Shown here piece after piece: positions 2,856 through 32,000 of a stretch of DNA of 32,000 nucleotides. Source of the stretch: Candidatus Nitrospira inopinata (lineage in GTDB: Bacteria; Nitrospirota; Nitrospiria; Nitrospirales; Nitrospiraceae); contig NZ_LN885086.1 of NCBI RefSeq assembly GCF_001458695.1, forward strand, positions 1,410,001 to 1,442,000, given 5' to 3'. Below the pieces are notes generated by a model. The model was not told where the DNA came from, did not search any database, and worked only from the letters and a program-made list of their open reading frames with translations. The position numbers and the translations under genes were made by a program. Every line of letters begins with the position of its first letter. Position 1 is the stretch's first letter.

Positions 2856-3801
2856 TTTCGATATAGGCCTTGTTTTTCAAGCCCGCGAGCCACGATTGGA
2901 ATCTCTCTTCGGCCTTCTGCTCGAAGATCAATCCTTGAATTTCCCGCTTGACCTCCTCAAAGGGGCGATACTGCCGCGGCTTTTTCTCGTCGACGCGCAA
3001 AATGTGAAACCCCTGAACGGTCTCGATGATATCCGTGACGGCTCCCGGCACAAGCGGCGCGATCGCCTGATCGATGGCCGGCAAGAGCTCGCCCTGCCGT
3101 ACGAGCCCCAGTTTTCCTCCCTCCAAGGCGTTGGGCCCCTCCGAATAGCGTAACGCCACGTCCTCGAACCGCTCGCCGCGCTTCAATTCATCCATGGCCT
3201 TGCGGATTTTCGCCAAGGCGTCGGGGACATCATCGGCCGAACGGGACCGGACAAGGATCTGACTCAGCAGGTACTCCTCGGGAACGGCGAAGCGATCCCG
3301 GTGTTCCTGATAGTATCGCTTCATTTCCGACTCGCCGACCATGACGGCGCCCCGGACTTCACGGTCCACCACTCGCATCAGCAGCATTTGTTCGCGGAGA
3401 GAACGCCGCTGTCGGGGATCGGCAAGGTCCACCGTCGAACCCTGGAGCTTGAGCTGCTCGGCGGCCTGCGCAAGTTCCATATCCGATACGTCGATGCCCT
3501 TGGCCTTGGCTTCCTGCAATTGCAACCTTTGCTCGATCAGCTTCGTGAGCGCCATGGATTCCGCCGTCTTGACCCGTTGCGCGAGATCTTCTCCTCGGTG
3601 CTGTCGCTTGATCTGTTGCAGTTGCGGTTCACATTCGCGCTTCACGTCGGACAACATGATCAGATCGGAATTCACGACCGCGACGATGCGGTCCTCAAGA
3701 TACGCCGAGGCGAAGGTCGGGGCGAGCCAGGAGAGGCCGAACGCCAACCAGGTCATCGCGGCAAAGACCGTTCCGTCTTGTTTCTTGCAAATGGCCGGCA
3801 T
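2845..3801 (-). CDS. SurA-like periplasmic chaperone / parvulin-type peptidyl-prolyl isomerase
   Basis: Signal-like N-terminus (MTWLAFGLSWLAPTFASA), SurA-N-like helical region and a C-terminal parvulin block GGKLGLVRQGELLPAIDQA...VQGFHILRV. The ORF is open up to 3942. I prefer ATG 3801 (AGAGGA 8 nt upstream, start of the signal peptide). Confidence 0.75.
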   Translation of the reverse strand: MPAICKKQDGTVFAAMTWLAFGLSWLAPTFASAYLEDRIVAVVNSDLIMLSDVKRECEPQLQQIKRQHRGEDLAQRVKTAESMALTKLIEQRLQLQEAKAKGIDVSDMELAQAAEQLKLQGSTVDLADPRQRRSLREQMLLMRVVDREVRGAVMVGESEMKRYYQEHRDRFAVPEEYLLSQILVRSRSADDVPDALAKIRKAMDELKRGERFEDVALRYSEGPNALEGGKLGLVRQGELLPAIDQAIAPLVPGAVTDIIETVQGFHILRVDEKKPRQYRPFEEVKREIQGLIFEQKAEERFQSWLAGLKNKAYIEIKF

Positions 3802-3892
3802 GATTTCAATCCTCTGTGCGACGGGGAGCAAGAACAGCCCGTTTTTCATTGTACACGAAGCGAGCCGCTTGGCGGAAAGCCGGAAAGGAAAT

Positions 3893-4828
3893 TTACGGTA
3901 TCGGGGCCGTTTCTTCAGAAACGGGACGAGCGACGTCCCCAAGACGAACGGTCGCCTTGGCCCGAATGTCGGCGATCACTTCCTCAAACCGCTTGCGGCG
4001 CTTGTCGGCCAGCAGCTCCTGGCGGAGCCGTTCTTGAATGGCCAGGTCGGCCTCGATCACTTCCCGTTCAAGCGGCGTGGTCATGACCAAGTAGTAGCCC
4101 TCCTCCGTCTTGATCGGCGCGCTGATCAATCCCGGTTTGAGGGCGTGAATGACGGCGTCGACTTCGGGAGGGACCAGGCCCTTTCGATAGGGGCCGAGGT
4201 CGCCGCCCTTGGCTTTCGTTTTTTCATCGATGGAGTACCGTTGGGCGAACTTCGCAAAACTGCCTCCGCGGTTGATCTGGCTCTCAAGATCTTTGGCGGC
4301 GTACACGTTCGGCAGAAGCATCACCGACACTTGGACTTTCAAGGGGTCGAGCAACTCGTGCGCGTGCTGTTGATAATAGGCGTCCAGCTCGGCTTTCGAG
4401 AGTTCGACGTCCGACAAGAGTCGGTCCTTCAACAGTTCGTCGATGAGCAGTTGTTCCTTGTACCGCTGAACCTTATCCCGAACGGCGTCGGTTTGGTCGA
4501 GGCCCCGCTGTCGCGCCTCCTGCAGGAGCAGTTCCCTTGTGACGAGATCGTCCAGAAACCGCCGCATGCCGCCCTCTTTCTGGTATCGGGCGCGGGTCGC
4601 GTCCGAGAGCTCCTTCCACCGGCGTTCAAATTCTCTTTGGGTGATGGGGCGCCCGTTCACCAGCGCCACGACCGGTTCTTCCTCCTGCGGCTGGACGGCG
4701 CATCCGTGAACGAACGGATCCACGGCCATGAGAAGGGCGACGAGGAGCGGGGCGACGGGGACGCGGAAGCGATGGTCGAGATAGAGGCGGCTTGGCATCG
4801 TCGGCGACTGCGGATGAATTCGATTCAT
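3893..4828 (-). CDS. PpiC/PrsA-type peptidyl-prolyl cis-trans isomerase, probable lipoprotein
   Basis: N-terminal hydrophobic stretch ending FVHGC (lipobox-like). Parvulin block GGDLGPYRKGLVPPEVDAVIHALKPGLISAPIKTEEGYYLV. The start overlaps the mfd stop by 4 nt. Confidence 0.75.
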   Translation of the reverse strand: MNRIHPQSPTMPSRLYLDHRFRVPVAPLLVALLMAVDPFVHGCAVQPQEEEPVVALVNGRPITQREFERRWKELSDATRARYQKEGGMRRFLDDLVTRELLLQEARQRGLDQTDAVRDKVQRYKEQLLIDELLKDRLLSDVELSKAELDAYYQQHAHELLDPLKVQVSVMLLPNVYAAKDLESQINRGGSFAKFAQRYSIDEKTKAKGGDLGPYRKGLVPPEVDAVIHALKPGLISAPIKTEEGYYLVMTTPLEREVIEADLAIQERLRQELLADKRRKRFEEVIADIRAKATVRLGDVARPVSEETAPIP

Positions 4829-7800
4829 GGACCGGGCGCGGCCTGTTCCCCGCTGTTGGTATCACAGAGGCTGAGGCTTTGCAAGGCTGCGTTCAGTTCC
4901 ACGTAGACGGAGGGCCAGTCCTCCCGCGGCATCCGGATCTCGAACGACCGCGGGCTCACGAACCGCAGCCGCTTCTGGAACCGCTTCATCAGGCGATGAA
5001 TCGCGCTCTCGGGGGCGGGAGCGGTCGGCCCGAACGTCAGAACGGCCGACGCGCCGTGCACGTCGATCGAGGTCAGTCGGAGACGTTTGGCGTGGATGCG
5101 GAGCTGCATGACTTCCAGCAGCCGTTCGACCGGCTCCGGCGGATGGCCGTAGCGGTCTTGGATTTCCCCGTGGAGCAACGCCAGCTCGCCGATCTGGTTG
5201 CAGGCGCTCAGGCGCTTGTAAAGCGACAACCGCTGATGCGGGTCGGTCACGAAATCCTCGGGAATAAAAGCCGACACGGGCAACTGGAGCGTCGAGTCCG
5301 GTTCCTCTTCGACGACGCGGCCTTTGAGCCGCTGCACCGCCTGTTCGACCATTTGCATGTAGAGGTCCAGGCCGACCGCCGCGATGTGGCCGGATTGTTG
5401 TTTGCCCAGCAGGTTGCCGGCTCCGCGGATTTCGAGATCGGCGGCGGCGATGCGGAATCCCGAGCCCAGTTCGGTGAATTGTTGAATGGCGATCAGCCGT
5501 TTTTGCGCGTCGCCGGTGAGAGTTCCTTCATCGGGGATCAGAAAGTAGGCGAACGCTTGTTCTCCGCCTCTGCCCACTCGCCCGCGCAGTTGGTACAACT
5601 GCGCGAGACCGAACGTGTCGGCCCGGTTGACGATGATCGTGTTGGCGTTGGGGACGTCGAGACCCGATTGGATGATGGCCGAGGCGATCAGGACGTCCGC
5701 GTCACGCTTGACGAACTTGAGCATGACCGCTTCCAGCGGCTTGGCGTTCATTTGACCGTGCGCCATGACCATGCGGGCTTCCGGTACCAGTCGACGCAGC
5801 CAGGCCCCGGTTTGTTCCATGGTCTCGACTCGGTTGTGGACGAAGTACACCTGCCCGCCTCGCCCCAGCTCGCGCAGAATCGCGTCCCGCACGATTTTGT
5901 CGCTTGCGCGGACGACTTCCGTCTTGATCGCCAGCCGGCCGGCCGGCGGCGTTTCGATGACGGACAGGTCTCGGACGCCCGACATGGCCATTTGCAGCGT
6001 GCGGGGAATGGGCGTGGCGGTGAGCGTCAACACGTCCACCTGCGTGCGGAGTTGTTTCAATCGCTCCTTGTGTTTCACGCCGAACCATTGCTCTTCGTCG
6101 ATGATGACGAGACCGAGATTGCGGAACGTCACGTGTTTCTGAAGCAGGCGATGGGTGCCGATGACGACGTCGACGGCGCCGGACGCGACGTCCGCGACGA
6201 CGGTCTTGCTCTCCTGGGGCGATTGAAACCGGGAGAGCAGGGCGACGCGAACGGGAAACGGGGCGAATCGCTCCGCGAAGGTTTCGTAATGTTGATGGGC
6301 GAGCAGCGTGGTCGGCACCAACACCGCCACTTGACGACCGTGTTCCACGGCCTTGAAGGCGGCGCGCATGGCCACCTCCGTTTTGCCGTACCCGACGTCG
6401 CCGCAGACGAGTCGGTCCATCGGCTTCGTCGATTCCATGTCGCGGAAGATGTCTTCGACGACTTTCCGTTGATCCGGCGTCTCTTCATACTCGAACGCGG
6501 CCTCGAATTCATGATAGAGCATGCCTCCCGTTTCGTACGAGGGGCGCTTCACCAATTCCCGGCTGGCGTACAGCTCCACCAGTTCGTGGGCCATTTCCTC
6601 GATGTCTTTTTTGACCCGCGCCGTCGTCTTCGCCCACGTGGTTCCGCCGAGGCGGTTGAGACGGGGAACGTGGCTCTCGGCTCCGCTGTACCGTTGGACT
6701 TGGTTGAGTCGGTCGAGCGGAACGTACAGGGTGTCGCCTCCGGCGAACTCCAGCGTCAGATAGTCGCTTTCGAAGTCTTGGACGGCGAGGCGCTTGAGCC
6801 CCCGGTACTTGGCGATCCCGTGTTGGACATGCACCACGTAATCGCCGACGTTCAGATCGTCCAACGACGACAGAAAGGTGGCCGTTTTGCTTTTCGGCTG
6901 AGGCTTGTGACGGGCGCCTTTCGCGAACAGCTCCTCTTCCGTCAAAACGGCCAGGCGCAGATCGCCGGAGAGAAAGCCGGACGACAACTCGCCGTGCATG
7001 ACCTGAAACGGAAGCTTCTCCTCGCTCCGGCGGGACCAGATCTCCGGCCGCCATTCGTCCGCCGGCAAGTCGTGCTCTCGGAAGAGCGCCAGCAGCCGAT
7101 CCACTTGCCCCCGGCTTCTGGCCACCAAAATGACCCGATGGTCCGCGCGGAGACGATCCAAGAGGGTGAGGGTCTGACTGAAAGGGGTGCCTCTGATGCC
7201 CAATCCGGCGGCGGCCGGCGTCTGTCCGGCGAAGGAACAGGTGAAATCCCATGTTCCGTCCGGAGTCGCCAGCGGCTCGATCGCCAGGGTCGGCCACGTT
7301 GCCGTGGCGCGCTGGATCTCGTCCCACGTCAAGAAGAGCGTCTCCGGCGAGGGGTAGGGACGCGAGGCGTCGCGATCCGCGTGCCGGAGATAGCCGTCCT
7401 CGATCTTCTCCCAGGCCGCCCGGCAAGCCCGCCGTAACGATTCCGGTTGATCGAGAACCAAGCAGGGAGCTCCCGCCAGGTATTGGAACAAGGAATCCAT
7501 CCGGCCGTAGATCTCCGGGCTGCGCCACTCCGCGTCCGGTGGGATGGAAGACAAGGCCTCCGGGTCATCGACGGCGCGGAGGAACTCCCGAGCCGGCAAC
7601 ACCAGTCCCTCTCCGATCGTTTTGATCGAGGTCTGTGTCGAGGCGTCGAACAGGCGGATCGATTCGACTTGATCGCCGAGCAATTCGATCCGGATCGGAT
7701 CGGCGTGGGCGGTCGAAAAAATATCGATGATGCCGCCGCGAACGCTGAACTCGCCCGGAATGTCCACGACCGACACGCGCCGGTACCCCAGACGCAGGAG

Positions 7801-10852: not shown

Positions 10853-11440
10853 CTAGGATGCGCCGAGCAGTTGTTCCTCGACCAGTTCGCAGAGGACGTG
10901 GCCGAGCGTGATGTGGCTTTCTTGAATGCGGGACGTGACCGTGGAGGGAACGATGAAGGGATAATCCACCATGCCGGCCAGCTTGCTGCCCTTTGCGCCG
11001 GTCCAGGCCACCGTGGTCAATCCGCACTCGCGGGCCGCTTCGACGCCTTTCAACACGTTGGGCGAGTTGCCGCTGGTGCTGATCGCGATCGCGACGTCGC
11101 CTTTTCGTCCGTGCGCCCGCACTTGTCTGGCAAAGAGTTCTTCGTAGCCGAAGTCATTGGCGATGCAGGTGATCGCGGCGATGTCGGTCGCCAGGGCAAT
11201 GGCGGGCAACGGCTGGCGGTTCCGCATGTAGCGTCCGACGAATTCGGCCGCGATGTGAGCCGCGTCGGTGGCGCTCCCGCCGTTGCCGAACAGCAGCACC
11301 TTGTTGCCCTGGCGGAAGGCGTCGGCCATCAGGCGGGCGACTTGCGCGATGCGGTCGGCATGGTCGCGGGCGAACTGCTCCTTCACGCGCGCGCTGTCGC
11401 TGAATGCGTTGAGGGCCGAGTCTTTCAACGGGGCGTTCAT
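10853..11440 (-). CDS. gmhA: phosphoheptose isomerase (D-sedoheptulose-7-phosphate isomerase, SIS domain)
   Basis: LLFGNGGSATDAAHIAAEF and AISTSGNSPNV SIS motifs. Starting at ATG 11440 gives 195 aa, the normal GmhA size. The ORF-track TTG start at 11476 lies inside the -35 hexamer of the predicted promoter. Confidence 0.9.
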   Translation of the reverse strand: MNAPLKDSALNAFSDSARVKEQFARDHADRIAQVARLMADAFRQGNKVLLFGNGGSATDAAHIAAEFVGRYMRNRQPLPAIALATDIAAITCIANDFGYEELFARQVRAHGRKGDVAIAISTSGNSPNVLKGVEAARECGLTTVAWTGAKGSKLAGMVDYPFIVPSTVTSRIQESHITLGHVLCELVEEQLLGAS

Positions 11441-11447
11441 GGGCGCG

Positions 11448-11476
11448 ATTCTAGGGGAGGCGGTCCGACGTGTCAA
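11448..11476 (-). promoter_or_regulatory. sigma-70-type promoter TTGACA-N17-TAGAAT for gmhA (leaderless arrangement)
   Basis: Minus strand: TTGACA (11476-11471), exactly 17 nt of spacer, TAGAAT (11453-11448). The gmhA ATG (11440) begins 7 nt after the -10 hexamer, with no SD in between. Confidence 0.5.
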
Positions 11477-11511
11477 ACGTGAAGCCGCAAGACGTGTCCG
11501 TTACGGTCGAA

Positions 11512-11540
11512 TTGAACGGGCGTGGAACCGATGGTATAGT
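11512..11540 (+). promoter_or_regulatory. sigma-70-type promoter TTGAAC-N17-TATAGT for the CARF-family gene (leaderless or near-leaderless)
   Basis: TTGAAC (11512-11517), 17 nt spacer, TATAGT (11535-11540). ATG at 11550, 9 nt after the -10 hexamer. The intervening ccgggcgcc has no SD. Confidence 0.5.
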
Positions 11541-11549
11541 CCGGGCGCC

Positions 11550-12806
11550 ATGGCGCAGGATCAACCGGTCAAAGCTCTTGTGATCGCGCTGGTGAATGAT
11601 CCGGCGGCGGCGGTCTATTCGATCAATCGACTGAAGCCCGACAAGTTGTGTTTTGTCCTGCCGGAAAGCGGAAAGGGCGTGGTGGAGTCGGCGGTGCAGC
11701 CCAAGATCGAGCGGATGCCGCAGCGGTGGGACTGGATCATTCTCGCCGATACGGAGGAGTTTGCCGGTTGCCACCGGACGCTCGCCGCGTCCTTGCCCGA
11801 CCTCTTGCGGACGTGGGAAGTGCAGCCGGGCGAACTGGTCGTCGAGCTCACTGGCGCGACTCCGGCCATGGCCGGGGCCCTGTCGGTCGCCACGCTGCCC
11901 TGGAGCTCCCGGATCGTCTGGCTCGTTCCGGCTCGCGGGGAAGGGGATGATGACGTCATCGATTTGGAAGGACGCCGATGGGCGTGGACGCAAACGAACC
12001 CGTGGGATGAAGCGGCGGCGGTCTCCCGACGGGAAGGGTGTGAGTTGTTTAACAAGGGCGACTTTTCCGCCGCCGCGAAGCTGTTTCATGAGGTGGAGCT
12101 GCGGGTCAGCGGCGGCGGGAAGCCGTTGTATCGCGCCTTGGCCGACGTGGCTGAAGGATACGAGCGGTGGGAACGGTTTCACTACCGACAGGCATGGGAC
12201 AAGCTCAAGGGGGCGCTCAAGGCGTTGGAGATGGCGTCGCTCTGGGGAGGGCCGCCGGGGGTGAAAACGACGGTGTCCGGCATCAAAGCCAACGTGGGTT
12301 TTCTGGAGCGGCTGGTGCTGGACCCGGCGGAGGTCAAGGAGCTGCTGGTGGCCGATTTGTTGGCCCATGCAACCCGACGCCTTCAGGTTTCGCGAGATCC
12401 TGAAGGAGCGATGGTCGCGCTCCTCCGCGCCCTCGAAGCTTCTGCGCAGAGTCGGCTTTTCAAGCAATATCAGATCAAAAGTTGGGACGTGCGGCCGGAA
12501 TCCCTTCCGCCCGCCCTCCAGGAAACCTGTCGAACCTGCTATCTGGACGACATCGACGGCAAATACAAGTTGCCTCTGCCGGCGCAGTTTCGCGCGTTGG
12601 CCGGGTTGGGCGATCAATTGGGCCAATCGTTTCTTCGCGAATGGCCGGCCATGAAGCCGCTGCTCGATGCGGCGTCCCATGCCGTGCTCGGTCACGGTTT
12701 CGAGCCGATCAGAGGCGAGCGCGTCCAACAACTGTACGAAGTGGTCGTCAAGCTAACGGGTGTCACGGAGTCGGCGTTGCCGAAATTTCCGGCCCTGGCC
12801 CTTTAG
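11550..12806 (+). CDS. TIGR02710-like (Cas_Cas02710) CARF-domain protein with a HEPN-like C-terminus; orphan, with no cas genes nearby
   Basis: N-terminal Rossmann-like CARF signature: KALVIALVNDP...KLCFVLPES...VVELTGATPAMAGAL (compare the TGGTK.M loop). Mid/C-terminal blocks match my recollection of the TIGR02710 family: ATRRLQVSRDPEGAMVALLRALEASAQSRL and SHAVLGHGFEPI. The ORF-track 5' extension to 11268 overlaps gmhA and is rejected. Confidence 0.65.
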   Translation: MAQDQPVKALVIALVNDPAAAVYSINRLKPDKLCFVLPESGKGVVESAVQPKIERMPQRWDWIILADTEEFAGCHRTLAASLPDLLRTWEVQPGELVVELTGATPAMAGALSVATLPWSSRIVWLVPARGEGDDDVIDLEGRRWAWTQTNPWDEAAAVSRREGCELFNKGDFSAAAKLFHEVELRVSGGGKPLYRALADVAEGYERWERFHYRQAWDKLKGALKALEMASLWGGPPGVKTTVSGIKANVGFLERLVLDPAEVKELLVADLLAHATRRLQVSRDPEGAMVALLRALEASAQSRLFKQYQIKSWDVRPESLPPALQETCRTCYLDDIDGKYKLPLPAQFRALAGLGDQLGQSFLREWPAMKPLLDAASHAVLGHGFEPIRGERVQQLYEVVVKLTGVTESALPKFPALAL

Positions 12807-12809
12807 GGC

Positions 12810-13196
12810 ATGATGGAGATCCGCGTCTATTACGAAGACACCGATTGCGGCGGAGTCGTCTATTACGCCAATTACCTCAAGTACTTCGAGCGGGCCAGGA
12901 CCGAGTATCTTGAGTCGCGCGGCCGATCGGTGGCCCTGTTGATGGAACAGGGGACGGTTTTCGTCGTCGTGCACGCCGAAGTCCGGTACCATTCGCCCGC
13001 GCGGTACGGTGATCTCTTGGTCGTCGAGACGGAGGTGGCCGAGTCGGGTGCCGCTTCTTTTACGTTCCGGCACGTCGTCAAAGAAAAACTCGGCGGGCGA
13101 CTGATCGTCACGGGATCGACCAGGCTGGCCGCGACGGACAGCGCCGGGAGAGTCAAGCGTCTGGACAAGGACACCGTCGCTGCACTACAGTCCTGA
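12810..13196 (+). CDS. ybgC: YbgC/4-hydroxybenzoyl-CoA thioesterase family acyl-CoA thioesterase (hotdog fold)
   Basis: VYYEDTDCGGVVYYANYLKYFERARTEYL is the canonical 4HBT/YbgC N-terminal catalytic block. 128 aa. ATG lies 3 nt after the CARF gene stop. Confidence 0.85.
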   Translation: MMEIRVYYEDTDCGGVVYYANYLKYFERARTEYLESRGRSVALLMEQGTVFVVVHAEVRYHSPARYGDLLVVETEVAESGAASFTFRHVVKEKLGGRLIVTGSTRLAATDSAGRVKRLDKDTVAALQS

Positions 13197-13450
13197 TACG
13201 TTCTGCTTGCAGGCGGTACTCGTGGAGGGCGAAGACTCCGAGCCGGTCCATGGCTTCTTCCGGCTCTCTCACCAGGAAACGACGCCGCCTGCCGGCGGCG
13301 ACACACCGTTCGAGAGTCGAACCACGACCAGCCAGGTGCCGCGGGCTTCGGCTGCCCTCAGCCTCGGCTCCATTACTGTGTTGCGTGTGAGGTCCATGAA
13401 GAGAAGAGAGGGCGGCGAGAGGATCACCATCAAAAGAAAGGAGTGAAGGT

Positions 13451-14044
13451 ATGAGTCAGCAGATTCCTGGATATACCTATGGCACGGCGGCGGTCGCGAA
13501 GTCGCCCGTGTCACCGGAGGACTTCGAGCTCATGAAGAAGAGCGCGTTGTTCGGAGAAGAGGACGTGAAGTATCTGAAGATGTCCTATGACGTGGTGAAA
13601 GACCAGGTCGAGGCCATTCTGGACGTGTGGTACGGATTCGTCGGCTCCCAGCCTCACCTGCTCAAGGCGTTTCTCGGCAAGAGCGACGGTCAGCCGCTCG
13701 GTGATTACTTGGGCGGCGTCCGCAAGCGGTTCGGTCAGTGGATTCTCGATACCGCGCGCGCCGAGTATGATCAGAGGTGGCTGGATTACCAGCATGAAAT
13801 CGGGCTTCGGCATCATCGGACCAAGAAAAATAAGACCGACAATGCCCCTGCCTCGGCCGATATCGTGCCGTTCCGTGATTTGTTTGCGCTGGTTTTCCCG
13901 GTGACGTTTACGTTGAAACCGTTTCTCGCCAAGAAGGGCCATTCGGCCGAGGATGTGGACAAGATGTACAATGCCTGGCTGAAGTCCTGCCTTCTGCAAG
14001 TGACGCTTTGGAGCTACCCCTACGTCAAGAGCGGAGATTTTTAA
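13451..14044 (+). CDS. protoglobin (single-domain haem globin of the globin-coupled-sensor lineage)
   Basis: Near end-to-end resemblance to my recollection of Methanosarcina acetivorans protoglobin: IPGYTYG, ILD.WYGFVGS.PHLL, VRKRF..WILDT, WLDYQ.EIGLRHHRTKKN.TDN, KPFLA.KGH, LQV.LWSYPYVK.GDF. SD AAAGGAG lies upstream. Confidence 0.9.
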   Translation: MSQQIPGYTYGTAAVAKSPVSPEDFELMKKSALFGEEDVKYLKMSYDVVKDQVEAILDVWYGFVGSQPHLLKAFLGKSDGQPLGDYLGGVRKRFGQWILDTARAEYDQRWLDYQHEIGLRHHRTKKNKTDNAPASADIVPFRDLFALVFPVTFTLKPFLAKKGHSAEDVDKMYNAWLKSCLLQVTLWSYPYVKSGDF

Positions 14045-14053
14045 CCGCTCGCG

Positions 14054-14090
14054 GGCGGCGCGATGGAACCCATGGTCCCATCGCGCCGCC
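14054..14090. terminator. GC-rich 13-bp perfect inverted repeat between convergent genes (bidirectional terminator-like hairpin)
   Basis: GGCGGCGCGATGG (14054-14066), 11-nt loop, CCATCGCGCCGCC (14078-14090). It sits between the protoglobin stop and the stop of the 117-aa gene. No clear U-tract on either side. Confidence 0.5.
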
Positions 14091-14103
14091 GCACGTCAGT
14101 GCA

Positions 14104-14457
14104 TTAGTACGCCTTGCTGTAGCCGGCTTCGCCGTCGTAGTTCCACAGTTTTTGCGCCGCGGACCATTCCCACTTCTTGCCGAGCTGCACCAGAAAATCG
14201 GCTACCTCATGGTCTTTGATGGGTTTGGTGGCCATAAAGCGGCAGCGGTACCAGTTGACCATCAGGAGGTCTGGGCTCACGAAGCCGGGCCAGACCTTGG
14301 TGCCGCGGTTGGAGATGAACTCGCACTTGAAGGGGCCGAATTCGCCGTCGGTGAATTGCGGCACGCCCTTGTCCGTGATGATGTAGAGATCGACCCCCAC
14401 CAGCTCGATTTTTTTCTTCTTCTTCGTCGCGATCGCTTCTTGTGTAAATGTCGGCAT
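14104..14457 (-). CDS. conserved hypothetical 117-aa protein, translationally coupled to isocitrate dehydrogenase
   Basis: ATG 14457 is preceded by AAGGAGG (rc of 14463-14469), which overlaps the icd TAA stop (14468-14470). Globular-looking composition (W/F/Y-rich, CEFISNRGTKVWPGF). N-terminal K5 run. No family recognised. Confidence 0.6.
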   Translation of the reverse strand: MPTFTQEAIATKKKKKIELVGVDLYIITDKGVPQFTDGEFGPFKCEFISNRGTKVWPGFVSPDLLMVNWYRCRFMATKPIKDHEVADFLVQLGKKWEWSAAQKLWNYDGEAGYSKAY

Positions 14458-14467
14458 CGGTTCCTCC

Positions 14468-15484
14468 TTACTTCGTTCCGGCGCGCATCTTGTCGATGAT
14501 CGCCTGCGCATATTCATCGGTCTTCGCGGTGCCCCCCACGTCGTAGGTGACCCGCTTGCCTTCGTCCAACACCTGGTACATGGCCTTCTCGATGCGGTCC
14601 GCCGCCTCCTTCTCGCCGAGCCAGCGGAGCATCATCACGCCGGAGATCAGCACGGCGGACGGGTTCACCTTTTTCATGCCGGCGTACTTCGGCGCCGAGC
14701 CATGGACGGCTTCGAAGATGGCGCAATTGTCGCCGACGTTGGCGCCCGGCGCGAAGCCAAGGCCGCCCATCAGGCCCGCGCAGAGGTCCGTCAAAATGTC
14801 CCCGTAGAGATTCGGCAGCACCAGGCAGTCGAACTGGCCGGGGTTGCGCACCAACTGCATGGAGCAGTTGTCCACGATGATGTCGCCCGTCTCGATATCG
14901 GGATATTTCTTGGCGGCTTCCCGGAAGGCTTCGAGGAACAGTCCGTCCGTCATCTTCATGATGTTGGCCTTGTGGACGCAGTAGACTTTTTTGCGCCCGT
15001 TGTCCCGCGCCCACTTCAACGCGAAGTCCGCGATGCGATAGGACCCCGGCCAGGTGATGACCTTGAGACACTGCGCCACTTCGTCGGAGACCATGTGCTC
15101 GATGGCCGCGTAGGAGTCCTCGGTGTTCTCGCGGAAATTGATGATGTCCAATTTGTCCCACGGCCGTTTCAGCGCGGGGATAAGCCGCACGGGCCGCACG
15201 TTGGCGTACAGATCGAACACCTTCCGCAGCGTGACGTTGGCGCTCTTGTGCCCGGTTCCGATGGGCGTCGTCGTCGGGCCCTTCAGCGCCACTTTGTTTT
15301 TGGCGATGCTCTGAATCGTTTTCTCCGGCAAGAGCGTCCCGTATTTTTCGAGACAATCGAGACCGATGTCTTCATATTCCCACTTGATGTCGACGCCGCT
15401 TGCGTCGATCACCATGCGCACGGCCTCGCAAATCTCCGGTCCCGTGCCCTCTCCCGGAATCATCGTCACTACGTGCTTTGCCAT
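14468..15484 (-). CDS. icd: isocitrate dehydrogenase, NAD-type (IDH3-like member of the isocitrate/isopropylmalate dehydrogenase family)
   Basis: MIPGEGTGPEI, NKVALKGPTTTPIGTGHKSANVTLRKVFDLYANVRP, FRENTEDSYAAIEH, HKANIMKMTDGLFL and LPNLYGDILTDLCAGLMGGLG closely follow the IDH3/NAD-IDH pattern. SD AAGGGAGG lies upstream. Confidence 0.85.
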   Translation of the reverse strand: MAKHVVTMIPGEGTGPEICEAVRMVIDASGVDIKWEYEDIGLDCLEKYGTLLPEKTIQSIAKNKVALKGPTTTPIGTGHKSANVTLRKVFDLYANVRPVRLIPALKRPWDKLDIINFRENTEDSYAAIEHMVSDEVAQCLKVITWPGSYRIADFALKWARDNGRKKVYCVHKANIMKMTDGLFLEAFREAAKKYPDIETGDIIVDNCSMQLVRNPGQFDCLVLPNLYGDILTDLCAGLMGGLGFAPGANVGDNCAIFEAVHGSAPKYAGMKKVNPSAVLISGVMMLRWLGEKEAADRIEKAMYQVLDEGKRVTYDVGGTAKTDEYAQAIIDKMRAGTK

Positions 15485-28467: not shown

Positions 28468-29114
28468 TGGGACGGGTCCCGGTGGATCTGCTGATTTTCG
28501 ATCTCGACGGCACGCTCATCGAATCCAAATGGGACATCGCCGAGTCCGTGAACTTTACCTTGGCTCAATTGGGCTTGCCGCAACGTCCGTTGGAAGAGAT
28601 TTTTGGGTACGTCGGCGACGGCGTGAAGAAGCTGCTTCGGTCGGCGGTGGGAGAGGGAAACCAGGGCCGGTTCGAGGAGGCGCTGCGGATCTTTCGCGGA
28701 TATTACCTGGAGCACTGTCTCGATCGGACGACCTTCTATCCGGGGATCGAGCCGATGCTGCGACACTTTGCGCACAAGCGGAAGGCGGTCGCCACCAACA
28801 AATCGATCGAATACACCAGGGTGATTATGAACGGTTTGGGGCCGGGGCATTTCACGTACATGGTCGGCGGAGACGATGGATTCGGACTGAAACCGGAGCC
28901 CGGCATGCTGTTGCACATCATGGAGAAACTGAGCGTCTCAAAAGACCGGACGGTGCTGGTGGGAGACAGCACCAACGACATCAACGGCGGGCACAACGCC
29001 GGCATCCGCGTCTGCGCCGTCGGGTATGGCATGGGCAACCGAGAAAAAATGGCGGCCTGCCAACCGGATTGGTTCGTCGAGCGGCCTGAAGAACTGATGG
29101 AGATTTTCGAATGA
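28467..29114 (+). CDS. gph: HAD-superfamily hydrolase, phosphoglycolate phosphatase-like
   Basis: Motif I LLIFDLDGTLIES, motif II ATNK and motif III VGDSTNDINGGHNAG. ATG 28467 overlaps the upstream stop. The ORF-track extension to 28320 is rejected. Confidence 0.8.
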   Translation: MGRVPVDLLIFDLDGTLIESKWDIAESVNFTLAQLGLPQRPLEEIFGYVGDGVKKLLRSAVGEGNQGRFEEALRIFRGYYLEHCLDRTTFYPGIEPMLRHFAHKRKAVATNKSIEYTRVIMNGLGPGHFTYMVGGDDGFGLKPEPGMLLHIMEKLSVSKDRTVLVGDSTNDINGGHNAGIRVCAVGYGMGNREKMAACQPDWFVERPEELMEIFE

Positions 29115-30712
29115 ATGCCACATTGAACCTGAGATCGATCAAGCGTCATGTCCACGGTCGAGCCGCCGCCTTGGCGATCGGCGTGGGACTGCTCTTGAGC
29201 CTGAATCAGACCATCGCGTTCGCGACGTCGCCGAATCTGGCCGAGCGCGTGATCGAACATCGGTTGGCCAACGGATTGACGGTGCTCATGGTCGAGCGCC
29301 ACCAGACGCCGATCGTGTCGATCAACATCACCTTCGCCGTCGGCGGCATTCACGAACAAGTCGGCCAGACGGGGATCGCCCATTTTTATGAGCACATGGC
29401 GTTCAAGGGGACGCGCACGATCGGGACGAAGGACTACGCCAAGGAGAAGCCGATTCTCGACGAGATCGCCCGCGTCGGCACCGAGCTGGAGCAACGCCAA
29501 CGCGACGCGGCGAGGCAAGTCGGCGGCGGGACGGCGGAAGAAGCGGCGGCCATCGAGTCGCTCAAAAAACGGTTCGATGAGCTGCAGGCGCAGGCCGCGC
29601 AATACGTGGTGGGCAATGAGCTGGCCTTGCTCTATCAGCGGCACGGAGGCGTGGGATTTAATGCGTCCACCGGAAAAGACCTCACCCGCTACACGATCAG
29701 CCTCCCGTCCAATCGTCTGCCGCTCTGGGCAGCCATCGAGTCCGATCGCATGGCCAATCCCGTTTTCCGCGAGTTTTATAAAGAGCGGGGCGTCGTGATG
29801 GAAGAGCGGCGGCTGCGGAACGAAGACAGTCCGACGGGCCTGCTGTTCGAAACGTTCACCTCGGCCGCCTTTCGAGCCCATGGGTACGGCGTACCGACCA
29901 TCGGCTGGGGATCGGACATTCTGTCGCTGACGCCGGCCGAGACGGAAGCCTTCTTCAAAACCCATTACGGTCCGAATCGGGCGACCATCGCGTTGGTGGG
30001 GGACATCAATCCGAAAGAAGTGATCGATCTGATCGAGAAAACTTTCGGGAAAATCCCCGCCGCTCCCCCGCTGACGCTCAAGATGCCGGTGGAGCCCGAG
30101 CAACGGGGAGAGCGGCGAGTGGAAGTGGAGTTTGACGCGGAACCGTCGATCGTCATCGGGTTTCACAAGCCCGGTTTGGGCCATCCCGATGAGCCGGTGT
30201 TCGACGTCATCGATGCCGTTCTCTCGGATGGGTTGACGTCCCGCCTGCACCGAAAACTGGTTCAGGAACGCCGACTGGCTGCGTCCGTCCATACGGACGC
30301 AAGCCATCCCGGCGTGCGCGATCCCAATCTCTTCATTGTCACGGCGACACCGCTGGCGCCTCGCACGACGGCGGAAGTGGAGGCCGCGATTTATGAAGAA
30401 TTGGATCGGTTGAAGCGCGAACCGGTCTCGTCCAAGGAGCTTGAGCGGGTGATCAATAATTTGGACGCCGACATGGTGCGCGCGCTCAGGTCCAACAGCG
30501 GGCTGGCATCCCAACTGGCGATGTATCAGGCGGTGGCCGGCGACTGGCGCTATATTCTCACGTCGCGCGACCGCGTGGCCGCGGTGACCGCCGCCGACAT
30601 CCAGCGGGTGGCGACCCAGTATTTCACCAAGTCGAACCGGACGGTGGGGGTGCTGGTCAAGAAAAACGGCGCGAAAATCGCGGCTGCTCAGGACGGGGAG
30701 GCGGCGCCATGA
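29111..30712 (+). CDS. M16 family zinc metallopeptidase (insulinase/pitrilysin-like), catalytic subunit, secreted
   Basis: Signal-like N-terminus. Inverted zinc motif HFYEHMAFKGT (HxxEH). M16 C-terminal domain. 533 aa. Confidence 0.85.
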   Translation: MNATLNLRSIKRHVHGRAAALAIGVGLLLSLNQTIAFATSPNLAERVIEHRLANGLTVLMVERHQTPIVSINITFAVGGIHEQVGQTGIAHFYEHMAFKGTRTIGTKDYAKEKPILDEIARVGTELEQRQRDAARQVGGGTAEEAAAIESLKKRFDELQAQAAQYVVGNELALLYQRHGGVGFNASTGKDLTRYTISLPSNRLPLWAAIESDRMANPVFREFYKERGVVMEERRLRNEDSPTGLLFETFTSAAFRAHGYGVPTIGWGSDILSLTPAETEAFFKTHYGPNRATIALVGDINPKEVIDLIEKTFGKIPAAPPLTLKMPVEPEQRGERRVEVEFDAEPSIVIGFHKPGLGHPDEPVFDVIDAVLSDGLTSRLHRKLVQERRLAASVHTDASHPGVRDPNLFIVTATPLAPRTTAEVEAAIYEELDRLKREPVSSKELERVINNLDADMVRALRSNSGLASQLAMYQAVAGDWRYILTSRDRVAAVTAADIQRVATQYFTKSNRTVGVLVKKNGAKIAAAQDGEAAP

Positions 30713-32000
30713 CGAGGACAATGAAGAAGAGGAAAATCGCGATGGAGCTTCGTTCTGCGTCCTTGCTGGCGGCGGTCGTGGCGTCGATCGCGACCATGAC
30801 CGGTTGCGCGGGCCTGGGGGAGCTGACCGACGCGCGGACCGCTGATCCGCGGACCATGAGATTTGCGCCCGTCGAGTTTTCTCCTCCGGAACCGGAACGG
30901 CTCGTGTTGGACAACGGCATGGTGGTTTATCTGCTGGAGGATCATGAACTGCCCTTGATCACGGTGACGGCGACCATGCGAACAGGCGGTTGGCTCGACC
31001 AAGAAGACAAAATCGGTCTCGCCGCGTTGACCGGCACGGTGATGCGGACCGGCGGCGGAGGGAGGTTCTCCGCGGAGGAAGTCGACGAAGAGTTGGAGCA
31101 GCTCGCGGCCAACATCGGCATCGGCATCGGCCGGGAATCCGGGTCCGCCTCTCTCGACGTGTTGAGCAAGGATTTCAAACGGGGGTTGGAGATCTTCGCC
31201 GCTCTCCTTCGGGAGCCGGCGTTCGATCCGGCTCGTGTCGAGCTGGCCAAACTACAGGCCATCGAGGGAATTCGACGTCGGCAGGACCAGCCCGGCTCCA
31301 TCGTCGGTCGAGAGTTCCTCAAATCGCTGTACGGCGCCGGACATCCAAGCGCCCGCGAGAGCACGGTCGAATCGATTCGCCGCATCGGCAGAGACGACCT
31401 GGTCTCGTTCCACCGGGAGACCGTCCATCCGAACGGCATGATTCTCGGCGTCACGGGCGACTTCAAGAGAGAAGAAATGTTGGAAGCGTTGCGGGCAACC
31501 TTCGGAGATTGGCGGCCGGGAACGGTGCCGGAACTGAAGATTCCCGAGGTGGCCGAACAGGAAGCGGTCAAACCCGCGGTGCTGTTCATCGACAAGGAGA
31601 CGACGCAGACCCATCTCCGGGTGGGGCATTTGTCGATCAAAGAATACGATTCCGATTACGCCGCCTTGGCGATCGCCAACGACATTCTGGGAGGCAGCTC
31701 GTTCCGCAGCCGCCTGTTCAACGACGTGCGGACCAAACGGGGCTTGGCCTATTCCGTCGGCAGCCGTTTGATGGCCGGCTCGCACGATCAGGGCGTCTGG
31801 CTGATGAGGGCCGAGACCAAGTCCGAGTCCACGCAGGAAGTCGTCAAGCGGTTCGTGGCCAATGTCGAGCGTATCCGCTCCGAGTTCGTGAGCGACGAAG
31901 AGTTGGCCGAAGCGAAAGACGCCTACGTCAATTCGTTTGTGTTTTCGTTTTCCAGCCCATCGGCCATCGTGAGCCGACTGATCGAGCTGGAGTATGACGG
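30709..32000 (+). CDS. M16 family peptidase-like protein, non-catalytic partner (no HxxEH), probable lipoprotein; 3'-truncated by the window end
   Basis: This gene is not in the supplied ORF track. My own translation from ATG 30709 (ATGA overlap with the upstream stop) is open to the window end: MTRTMKKRKIAMELRSASLLAAVVASIATMTGCAG...GLAALTGTVMRTGG (in place of HxxEH)...FRSRLFNDVRTKRGLAYSVGS. Confidence 0.8.
   Translation, partial: MTRTMKKRKIAMELRSASLLAAVVASIATMTGCAGLGELTDARTADPRTMRFAPVEFSPPEPERLVLDNGMVVYLLEDHELPLITVTATMRTGGWLDQEDKIGLAALTGTVMRTGGGGRFSAEEVDEELEQLAANIGIGIGRESGSASLDVLSKDFKRGLEIFAALLREPAFDPARVELAKLQAIEGIRRRQDQPGSIVGREFLKSLYGAGHPSARESTVESIRRIGRDDLVSFHRETVHPNGMILGVTGDFKREEMLEALRATFGDWRPGTVPELKIPEVAEQEAVKPAVLFIDKETTQTHLRVGHLSIKEYDSDYAALAIANDILGGSSFRSRLFNDVRTKRGLAYSVGSRLMAGSHDQGVWLMRAETKSESTQEVVKRFVANVERIRSEFVSDEELAEAKDAYVNSFVFSFSSPSAIVSRLIELEYD

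Follow-up and report, generated by a model that had tools for sequence, protein, structure and literature searches.

The closest described relative of the gene considered here encodes the Csm6 protein of Thermus thermophilus (TtCsm6, TTHB152; PDB 5FSH, 8JH1, 8JBB and 8JBC), a member of the TIGR02710 / PF09670 plus PF22205 type in which a CARF domain, a helical 6H domain and a HEPN domain follow one another. Mutational analyses established how strongly each half of TtCsm6 depends on single residues. At the sensor end, K137A abolishes binding of cyclic tetra-adenylate (cA4) together with RNase activation, T59A/S60A abolishes cA4 cleavage as well as RNase activation and RNA degradation, (PMC10897365); motif I and the lid touch the ligand. 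At the nuclease end, any one of R415A, N416A and H422A is enough to abolish RNase activity (PMC10897365, PMC4748810), in a loop that is also the HEPN dimer interface (PMC4748810). Here we describe a protein of the same type, with the same CARF-6H-HEPN order and fold, encoded at 11550-12806 (+) in a 32-kb stretch of DNA from Candidatus Nitrospira inopinata (the window, to which all coordinates refer). Its sensor and nuclease motifs are both degenerate, and we consider it likely to be a domesticated Csm6 pseudoenzyme with a role outside defence.

Parts of this picture have precedents. The Swt1 HEPN domain and the HEPN domains fused to MNT nucleotidyltransferases have lost the R-X4-6-H motif, kept the fold and passed from conflict to cellular use (PMC3710099), much as would be the case here; they belong to other HEPN families, whereas the Nitrospira HEPN domain is still joined to an equally degenerate CARF domain. 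The 2013 HEPN survey lists the Csm6 (Cas_Cas02710) family with its catalytic motif conserved ('Yes') (PMC3710099). The CARF domain of TtCsm6 is most similar to Crn1 (PMC10897365), and the Crn1-type CARF ring nucleases Sso2081 and Sis0455 are weak structural matches to the Nitrospira CARF domain as well; they differ in their ring-nuclease motifs I and II, which are absent from the Nitrospira protein, and in lacking the 6H and HEPN domains that it adds. The case is thus not categorically new, since inactivated HEPN proteins and non-CRISPR CARF proteins are both known as classes. No description of the Nitrospira Csm6-like clade was found in the literature searched.

The open reading frame (ORF) encodes 418 residues and closes with a TAG stop at 12804-12806. 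Orthologous loci for comparison were the best 80 of the 387 Genome Taxonomy Database (GTDB) species genomes (one genome per species) that encode a relative. We take the ATG at 11550 as the real start because all 79 orthologues with upstream sequence share an ATG at this position, followed by the N-terminus MAQDQPVKAL or a near variant. A longer frame from a GTG at 11268 was rejected: the orthologues start at the ATG, a promoter lies just upstream of it, and the extension overlaps the divergent gene gmhA. The public annotation (CUQ66449.1 / WP_158023268.1 of Ca. N. inopinata, in whose cluster the protein falls; 455 residues) begins 37 codons upstream (11439-11549) and extends over the start of gmhA and the two promoters described below; this entry is probably over-extended at its N-terminus, the conserved start giving 418 residues.

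Family membership, which had been put forward in an earlier sequence-only reading of this DNA, is borne out by profile searches. The protein matches TIGR02710 at 110.9 bits (E 6.3e-32; curated cut-off 83.9), with residues 21-403 covering positions 3-381 of the 384 in the model, PF09670 (Cas_Cas02710, now 'Csm6 HEPN domain') at 66.2 bits (cut-off 27; residues 265-403) and PF22205 (Csm6_6H) at 48.4 bits (cut-off 27.6; residues 159-221). Csx1/CARF_HEPN profiles of PADLOC match over the full length with up to 824 bits; the 824-bit profile is named 'CARF1--CARF_HEPN', and this end-to-end match suggests that sequences of the clade were already part of an earlier census of CARF proteins. An AlphaFold2 model built from 115 family sequences has a predicted local distance difference test score (pLDDT) of 94.5 and a predicted template modelling score (pTM) of 0.89. 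In a Foldseek search its best PDB match is TtCsm6 (8jh1_A), aligned over its full length at E 7e-13 with a template modelling score for the query (TMq) of 0.63, and TtCsm6 chains fill the first eight places among the PDB matches (E 7e-13 to 2e-11); TtCsm6 is also the sole PDB relative found by sequence (HMMER, E about 1e-3). The description of the gene product as a CARF protein consequently holds for the family and not for a bare sensor: the PF22205 and PF09670 matches and the TtCsm6 fold make it a full Csm6-type CARF-6H-HEPN protein with sensor plus RNase architecture. Identity to TtCsm6 is about 21%, and the shared core includes D99, G102, T104, N150, W152, R276, E296, H382 and G383 in Nitrospira numbering.

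Residues 1-148 (11550-11993, +) form the Rossmann-like CARF domain, with alternating strands and helices in the model; CARF-only structures (Cam1, Can2, Cad1 and ring nucleases) align to this part in the structure search, and the ligand-site signature is lost. Its motifs were compared in an alignment of 186 distinct Nitrospira-clade sequences, six intermediates (33-51% identity) and 100 canonical representatives (22-32% identity). Motif I, canonically S-[VL]-G-G-[ST]-P-x-P, reads ALVNDPAAAV (11586-11615, +); LVNDPAAA stands where TtCsm6 has the G-[ST]-[ST] element (G58, T59, S60), the segment varies among orthologues, and the motif I glycine at position 16 is found in 88 of the 100 canonical representatives as against 15 of the 186 clade members. 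Motif II, canonically D-[YF]-T-G-G-T-K-x-M-S, has become ELTGATPAMA (11844-11873, +), or [DE]-x-T-G-A-T-P-A-M-A across the clade. The T-x-G-x-K element is represented by TGATP, with Pro105 for the lysine that binds cyclic oligoadenylate (cOA) and Ala103 for glycine; the HMMER alignment places TtCsm6 K137 opposite P105 and G135 opposite A103. The lysine is present in 99 of 100 canonical sequences and in none of the 186 from the clade (Pro 146, Ala 21, Ser 17). The clade has also replaced other CARF and lid positions whose conservation in canonical members is 85% or more (S38, G124, G125, R128, G132, G134, V138 and E143), along with the canonical-conserved G15, G16, P20, G103 and K105, while D99, T101, G102 and T104 of motif II are kept.

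The sequence-only reading had suggested that a CARF sensor detached from CRISPR might respond to another nucleotide signal. Stated more fully, an orphan sensor would bind cOA made by a distant type III system or a cyclic-oligonucleotide-based antiphage signalling system (CBASS), or some other nucleotide such as an adenine-containing metabolite, and would pass the signal on to either the HEPN domain or the thioesterase encoded downstream. The CARF fold is intact in the model, four motif II residues persist as just described, the domain is under purifying selection (ratio of non-synonymous to synonymous substitutions, dN/dS, 0.14), and a detached relative of the clade, P0126, keeps both the CARF lysine and the HEPN arginine outside any CRISPR locus, which implies that CRISPR-independent signalling existed in the lineage. 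Yet the lysine needed for cA4 binding in TtCsm6 (PMC10897365) is absent in 186 of 186 sequences, and the least conserved segments within the clade are motif I (0.75) and the lid (0.63), compared with 0.84 for the whole protein; a retuned pocket would show the reverse. Nor is there a cyclase or cas10 gene in the window, or a match to type III-A proteins there or in 93 related loci. CRISPR-Cas content, moreover, is patchy in the genus, some genomes carrying one or several systems and N. japonica NJ1 none reported (PMC5767232, PMC12542776), whereas the Csm6-like gene is widespread. With the pocket elements under less constraint than any other part of the protein, and with their residues replaced, the retuned sensor is disfavoured, and we regard an orphan sensor of either kind as improbable.

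The other half of the protein tells a parallel story. The HEPN domain (residues 263-418; 12336-12803, +) carries a degenerate active-site loop, DAASHAVLGHGF (12666-12701, +), in place of the canonical x-x-R-N-x-S-[IL]-L-A-H-G-x: A375 stands for the catalytic arginine and A378 for serine, H382 is kept, and H377 is conserved in the clade. In the HMMER alignment TtCsm6 R415 lies opposite A375, N416 opposite S376 (asparagine in most orthologues) and H422 opposite H382. The arginine occurs in 99 of 100 canonical representatives and in no clade member (Ala in 183 of 186), leaving no R-X4-6-H motif, and the histidine in 99 of 100 and 185 of 186, respectively. N273, D286, R290, Y292 and S378, each at least 85% conserved in canonical HEPN domains, have likewise been replaced. 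The sequence-only reading had cited the helical block SHAVLGHGFEPI as a family match, which it is, and had overlooked that SHAVLGHGFEPI is a HEPN motif without its arginine. Given the effects of K137A and R415A in TtCsm6, the Nitrospira protein amounts to the natural equivalent of two laboratory knock-outs, one in each half, and we infer that cOA-activated RNase activity and the CRISPR accessory function have both been lost. The motif losses predict that the protein neither binds cA4 or cA6 nor cleaves ssRNA on stimulation by cOA.

The remodelled loop is itself under strong constraint, D-A-A-[NS]-H-A-V-L-G-H-G-F being its form in the clade, and its conservation (0.96) is among the highest of any segment. 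This raises the main alternative, in which nuclease activity persists at a non-canonical HEPN site where His377 and His382, along with Asn376 and Glu296, replace the Arg/His pair in the composite dimer cleft; RNA would then be cut in the course of housekeeping processing, either constitutively or in response to a regulator that is not cOA. The loop DAA[NS]HAVLGHGFEP is near-invariant in the 186 orthologues, His382 and His377 included, three intermediates (P0123, P0128 and P0132) have arginine at position 377, and the HEPN survey contains families without the arginine but with the histidine, or with alternative catalytic residues (PMC3710099). Against this, the equivalent substitution R415A kills TtCsm6 (PMC10897365, PMC4748810), S378, R290, Y292, D286 and N273 are lost as well, and the histidine is dispensable in the wider clade, being Gly in P0121 and Tyr in P0128 and P0132. 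In addition, the role of the loop as the HEPN dimer interface in TtCsm6 (PMC4748810) could alone explain its conservation. A surviving nuclease therefore seems to us unlikely.

Conservation has instead built up at sites that are peculiar to the clade. The helical 6H domain (PF22205; residues 149-262; 11994-12335, +) contains two invariant loops, the glycine-rich RVSGGxKPLYRA (residues 185-196; 12102-12137, +) and KALEMASLWGGPPG (the WGGPPG loop; residues 224-237; 12219-12260, +), with conservation values of 0.97 and 0.94 in the clade versus 0.29 and 0.24 in canonical members. A third feature is a CxxC motif in the HEPN domain, C327-R-T-C330 (12528-12539, +), each cysteine of which is conserved at 98% or more across the 186 clade sequences, with Tyr/Arg at low frequency in canonical members; the motif occurs in P0121 and is missing from P0123. 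In all, 84 positions reach 98% conservation or more in the clade while being different or unconserved in canonical members, among them W60-D61-W62, RVSGGxKPLYRA, KALEMASLWGGPPG, the CxxC and the remodelled HEPN loop. The alignment thus points to a fold that has been kept, old sites that have been abandoned and new constrained surfaces that have been acquired. A metal, redox or phosphate-binding role is possible for the CxxC, RVSGGxKPLYRA and WGGPPG elements.

The gene is widespread and evolves slowly. At 72-92% identity there are more than 120 protein clusters (90% identity), most of 417-419 residues and from Nitrospira wherever a source is named; the best 80 of the species genomes (70-93% identity) belong to Nitrospira, Nitrospiraceae or Nitrospirota, with three exceptions: a short contig binned as Chloracidobacterium, and two that carry no label but 'uncultured bacterium'. 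Nei-Gojobori estimates over 1237 orthologue pairs with unsaturated dS give a median dN/dS of 0.10 overall, with 0.14 for the CARF, 0.08 for the 6H and 0.09 for the HEPN domain. Orthologue identity, about 72%, is like that of neighbouring genes (gmhA about 80%, thioesterase about 70%, dinB about 72%, mfd about 65-75%). On the strength of its constant length, a dN/dS near 0.1 in three domains, a fixed promoter and a stable housekeeping synteny, the gene appears to belong to the vertically inherited core of Nitrospira. A gene that had outlived a vanished type III system and was now decaying, as a pseudogene or neutral passenger, would fit the degeneration of both functional motifs and the lack of cas genes nearby, but the frame is intact and the length nearly constant in most orthologues from the clusters and the 387 species genomes, dN/dS is low in every domain, the promoter is conserved, and the 84 clade-invariant positions are different or unconserved in canonical members. 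These data rule out a pseudogene or remnant for practical purposes, and we attach almost no weight to that explanation.

Further insight comes from the intermediates and from the nearest relatives whose motifs are intact. In a neighbour-joining (NJ) tree of the Nitrospira sequences and the six intermediates against 60 canonical representatives, the Nitrospira clade and the intermediates are monophyletic in 50 of 50 bootstraps, and Nitrospira, P0121 and P0123 are grouped together in 50 of 50. The nearest motif-intact relatives (P0137, P0140 and P0135, from uncultured bacteria; 29-32% identical) share the length and domain order of the Nitrospira protein; they differ in keeping GGS/T, TGGTK and RNxSxLAHG, and in residing in type III-A cassettes with Cas10, Csm2, RAMPs, Cas6, Cas1 and Cas2. 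The P0137 gene is situated between csm genes and cas6-cas1, downstream of cas10, that of P0140 within a csm2-RAMP-cas6-cas1-cas2 cassette, and that of P0135 beside a RAMP gene as well as a CRISPR-like repeat. The Nitrospira proteins belong to one derived clade, away from cas genes, whose nearest motif-intact relatives are type III-A.

The six intermediates display the motifs in successive states of decay. P0126 keeps the CARF lysine and both the arginine and the histidine of the HEPN site. P0124 has Pro for the lysine and Gln for the arginine and retains the histidine. P0123 has Ala at both places, with an arginine two residues after the second that formally gives R-x4-H, and it too retains the histidine. 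In P0121 the lysine and arginine are both Ala and the histidine is Gly, in P0128 the three are Gln, Cys and Tyr, and in P0132 Gly, Trp and Tyr. No cas genes stand beside P0121, P0123, P0124, P0126 or P0128, and the contigs with P0132 hold this gene only. This stepwise decay among intermediates that have no cas neighbours leads us to think that detachment from CRISPR preceded the loss of the motifs, which is how the order of events seems from the sequences. P0121 and P0123 are about 50% identical to the Nitrospira protein and come from a metagenome contig of 300 kb and an assembly contig of 3.2 Mb, respectively. Their wider context is otherwise different, yet both lie close to gmhA and are directly followed by a 4HBT thioesterase gene, and the thioesterase association appears to arise at the node that joins Nitrospira with these two. 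Simple relocation from a type III locus was rejected, the housekeeping synteny being common to the Nitrospira loci and to these 50%-identical relatives. As to the other surroundings of the intermediates, P0126 (L009, 6906-9224) follows a gene with HATPase_c_2 and DUF4325 domains, and P0128 (L011, 7330-10286) overlaps a PF04199 'cyclase' (formamidase-like) gene, which is followed by a zinc alcohol dehydrogenase gene.

The Nitrospira gene thus differs from that of TtCsm6 in being placed outside any type III-A locus, in a core syntenic position and followed by a thioesterase gene, and in having invariant loops and a CxxC of its own. The sequence-only reading saw no CRISPR-Cas in the 32 kb, and independent searches agree. 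Pfam scans of chosen candidate ORFs across the window gave housekeeping families or no match, and neither a cas gene nor a cyclase-like gene; PADLOC, run on ten window ORFs, recognised only the Csm6-like protein, apart from a weak SNase match (E 0.0029); Tandem Repeats Finder and a crude k-mer scan for spaced repeats found no CRISPR array in the window; and tblastn with six proteins of one type III-A locus (E <= 0.01) gave no match in the window or in 93 related loci (80 orthologous Nitrospiraceae, 1.06 Mb). The setting of a functional Csm6, with cas10 and RAMP genes, was seen neither in the window nor in the 80 orthologous loci, whose neighbours as recognised by tblastn are housekeeping genes.

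Immediately upstream and on the other strand lies gmhA (sedoheptulose-7-phosphate isomerase; 10853-11440, -), with an SIS_2 match of 106 bits and a TIGR00441 match of 199.9 that is below the cut-off of 209. Downstream is a hotdog-fold acyl-CoA (coenzyme A) thioesterase of the YbgC/FadM type (12810-13196, +; identical in sequence to WP_197549234.1 of Ca. N. inopinata), matched by TIGR00051 (98 bits; cut-off 68.7), PF03061 (66.2 bits) and PF13279 (59.2 bits), whose ATG at 12810 follows 3 nucleotides (nt) after the Csm6-like stop. The position of the gene between these two neighbours had been recognised correctly from the sequence. Identity as the tol-pal-associated YbgC is not supported, TIGR02799 scoring 117.9 against 141.35 and the next genes being protoglobin and isocitrate dehydrogenase, not tolQRA. 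The recurrent order across the loci is mfd, a CTP-transferase-like gene, dinB, sprT, gmhA, (an NfeD-stomatin pair) and then the divergent Csm6-like gene with the thioesterase. Upstream, NfeD-stomatin and then gmhA are found in 44 of 64 loci and gmhA directly, as in N. inopinata, in 18 of 64.

Conservation of the pairing with the thioesterase, which the sequence-only reading had listed for checking, has two sides. Downstream adjacency on the same strand is conserved in 64 of the 66 loci with at least 1.5 kb of downstream sequence; tight coupling is not, the gap being at most 30 nt in 5 of these 64 loci, 31-200 nt in 26, 201-700 nt in 18 and more than 700 nt in 15. Obligate translational coupling was accordingly rejected, the spacers being lineage-specific; close coupling is confined, as far as these loci show, to an N. 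inopinata-like group, and it is the gene order itself that is conserved.

Several observations concern the intervals on either side of the gene. The NfeD-stomatin (Band_7) pair occupies the space between gmhA and the Csm6-like gene in, for example, L048 (6460-7859, -) and L007 (6339-7772, -), and is not at this position in the N. inopinata group. In L019, a '23S rRNA intervening sequence protein' gene (PF05635; 9305-9664) separates the Csm6-like gene from the thioesterase, and 26 of the 80 loci contain a PF05635-type gene at some position according to tblastn. Among the spacers that separate the two genes in L044, L083, L087 and others, several contain inverted repeats like cgttcgtgaagcgtatctcg ... 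gagatacgcttcacgaacg, as if they were remnants of small mobile insertions.

The Csm6-like gene also has a promoter-like site of its own. A consensus scan identified a -35 element TTGAAC, a 17-nt spacer and an extended -10 element TGgTATAGT at 11512-11540 (+), ending 9 nt before the ATG; TGnTATAGT is found at precisely that distance in 70 of the 78 orthologous loci compared, with either gmhA or NfeD as the gene upstream. The -35 element is TTGAAC or TTGATC in many lineages, while others have a different conserved block, gccggaaggctttt. The 9-nt spacer between the -10 element and the ATG is 81% G+C, and no Shine-Dalgarno sequence is evident in the 110 nt upstream of the orthologous starts. The conserved distance predicts that the gene is transcribed from its own promoter into a leaderless or near-leaderless mRNA. 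On the opposite strand, a promoter-like site for gmhA (11448-11476, -; TTGACA, 17 nt, TAGAAT; 11 of 12 matches) ends 8 nt before the likely ATG at 11440; the mechanically called ORF start, a TTG at 11476, overlaps this site, and the gmhA mRNA may be leaderless too.

If the protein is a domesticated pseudoenzyme, the Csm6 dimer scaffold would have been kept and its work moved to the new conserved surfaces, namely the RVSGGxKP and WGGPPG loops of 6H, the invariant remodelled HEPN loop and the CxxC, which would probably bind a partner, RNA or a small ligand without canonical cleavage. The most plausible setting would be a housekeeping role tied to the thioesterase and the cell-envelope and lipid neighbourhood, although this tie (to gmhA, the cytidylyltransferase-like gene, mtgA and SurA here, and NfeD-stomatin elsewhere) is a weak one drawn from gene order. 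It is enticing to speculate further that a single domestication of Csm6 into an important cellular protein took place in an ancestor shared by Nitrospira and its close relatives, with loss of cOA sensing and canonical RNase chemistry and gain of RVSGGxKP, WGGPPG, the CxxC and a double-histidine HEPN loop, and that the product now acts with the YbgC-type thioesterase in membrane-lipid or envelope homeostasis of these slow-growing nitrifiers, for instance in a regulatory or chaperone capacity or by sensing a CoA or adenine-nucleotide metabolite; we advance this scenario tentatively.

Several points weigh against the pseudoenzyme reading and its proposed setting. The presumed inactivity of the clade is read from motifs. 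At the HEPN site His382, Glu296 and, in most orthologues, Asn376 survive, the extra His377 is nearly invariant and is matched in P0123 by the arginine that formally restores R-x4-H, and the high conservation of the loop fits a functional site as well as it does a dimer interface. Binding of a small ligand at the CARF domain may persist, given the motif II residues that are kept. Finally, the spacer to the thioesterase ranges from 3 nt to 5 kb, at times with an inserted gene, and in view of this variability co-transcription and functional coupling with the thioesterase are conjectural.

That a doubly disarmed Csm6 homologue has become fixed as a core gene of Nitrospira makes this an unusually clean and testable case of the takeover of a defence protein. 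The relatives form a natural series from motif-intact Csm6 in type III-A loci, through the detached P0126 with both motifs, to proteins with one or both motifs lost and to the Nitrospira core gene, and the series displays the stepwise disarming and re-use of an RNase of the abortive-infection type. There is a practical side as well, the database name in hundreds of Nitrospira genomes being 'TIGR02710 family CRISPR-associated CARF protein'. The label 'CRISPR-associated' invites the false inference of CRISPR or type III systems in key nitrifiers, including complete ammonia-oxidising (comammox) organisms, and the present analysis of the gene corrects a misleading annotation in the genomes of these environmentally important bacteria. 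Should a function be found, it would provide a concrete case of the proposed exaptation of CRISPR-Cas components for non-defence purposes and assign a role to a conserved gene in organisms that are genetically hard to work with; the tentative scenario above, if true, would describe a passage from defence to housekeeping by a CRISPR ancillary protein that was fixed across a whole bacterial group.

The remainder of the window is made up largely of housekeeping genes. The full set comprises genes for an asparaginase, mtgA, an engB-like GTPase, two SurA-like peptidyl-prolyl isomerases (PPIases) and mfd, a small cytidylyltransferase-like gene, dinB, a sprT-like gene, gmhA, the Csm6-like gene and the YbgC/FadM thioesterase. 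It also includes protoglobin, isocitrate dehydrogenase, an NtrC-type response regulator, a PAS/GAF histidine kinase and hypothetical genes, and an S8 peptidase, an SNase-domain protein, an aminotransferase, a HAD hydrolase and two M16 peptidases. No RNA elements were found in the window with Rfam (at the gathering threshold) or ARAGORN, and no terminator-like site in 11300-14200. The single-domain protoglobin gene that comes after the thioesterase (13451-14044, +; PF11563, 95 bits) is detected by tblastn downstream in a minority of Nitrospira loci. Isocitrate dehydrogenase is split into an Iso_dh gene (338 residues; 14468-15484, -) and a separate small ORF with the bacterial isocitrate dehydrogenase C-terminal domain PF18324 (14104-14517, -), a two-gene layout that is also called in another Nitrospira genome (L001). 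Two long ORFs, at 3341-4906 (+; 521 residues) and 28736-30721 (-; 661 residues), have no family matches and run antisense to real genes, and were set aside as artefacts of high G+C content; their antisense partners are the two SurA-like PPIases and the HAD hydrolase plus an M16 peptidase, respectively.

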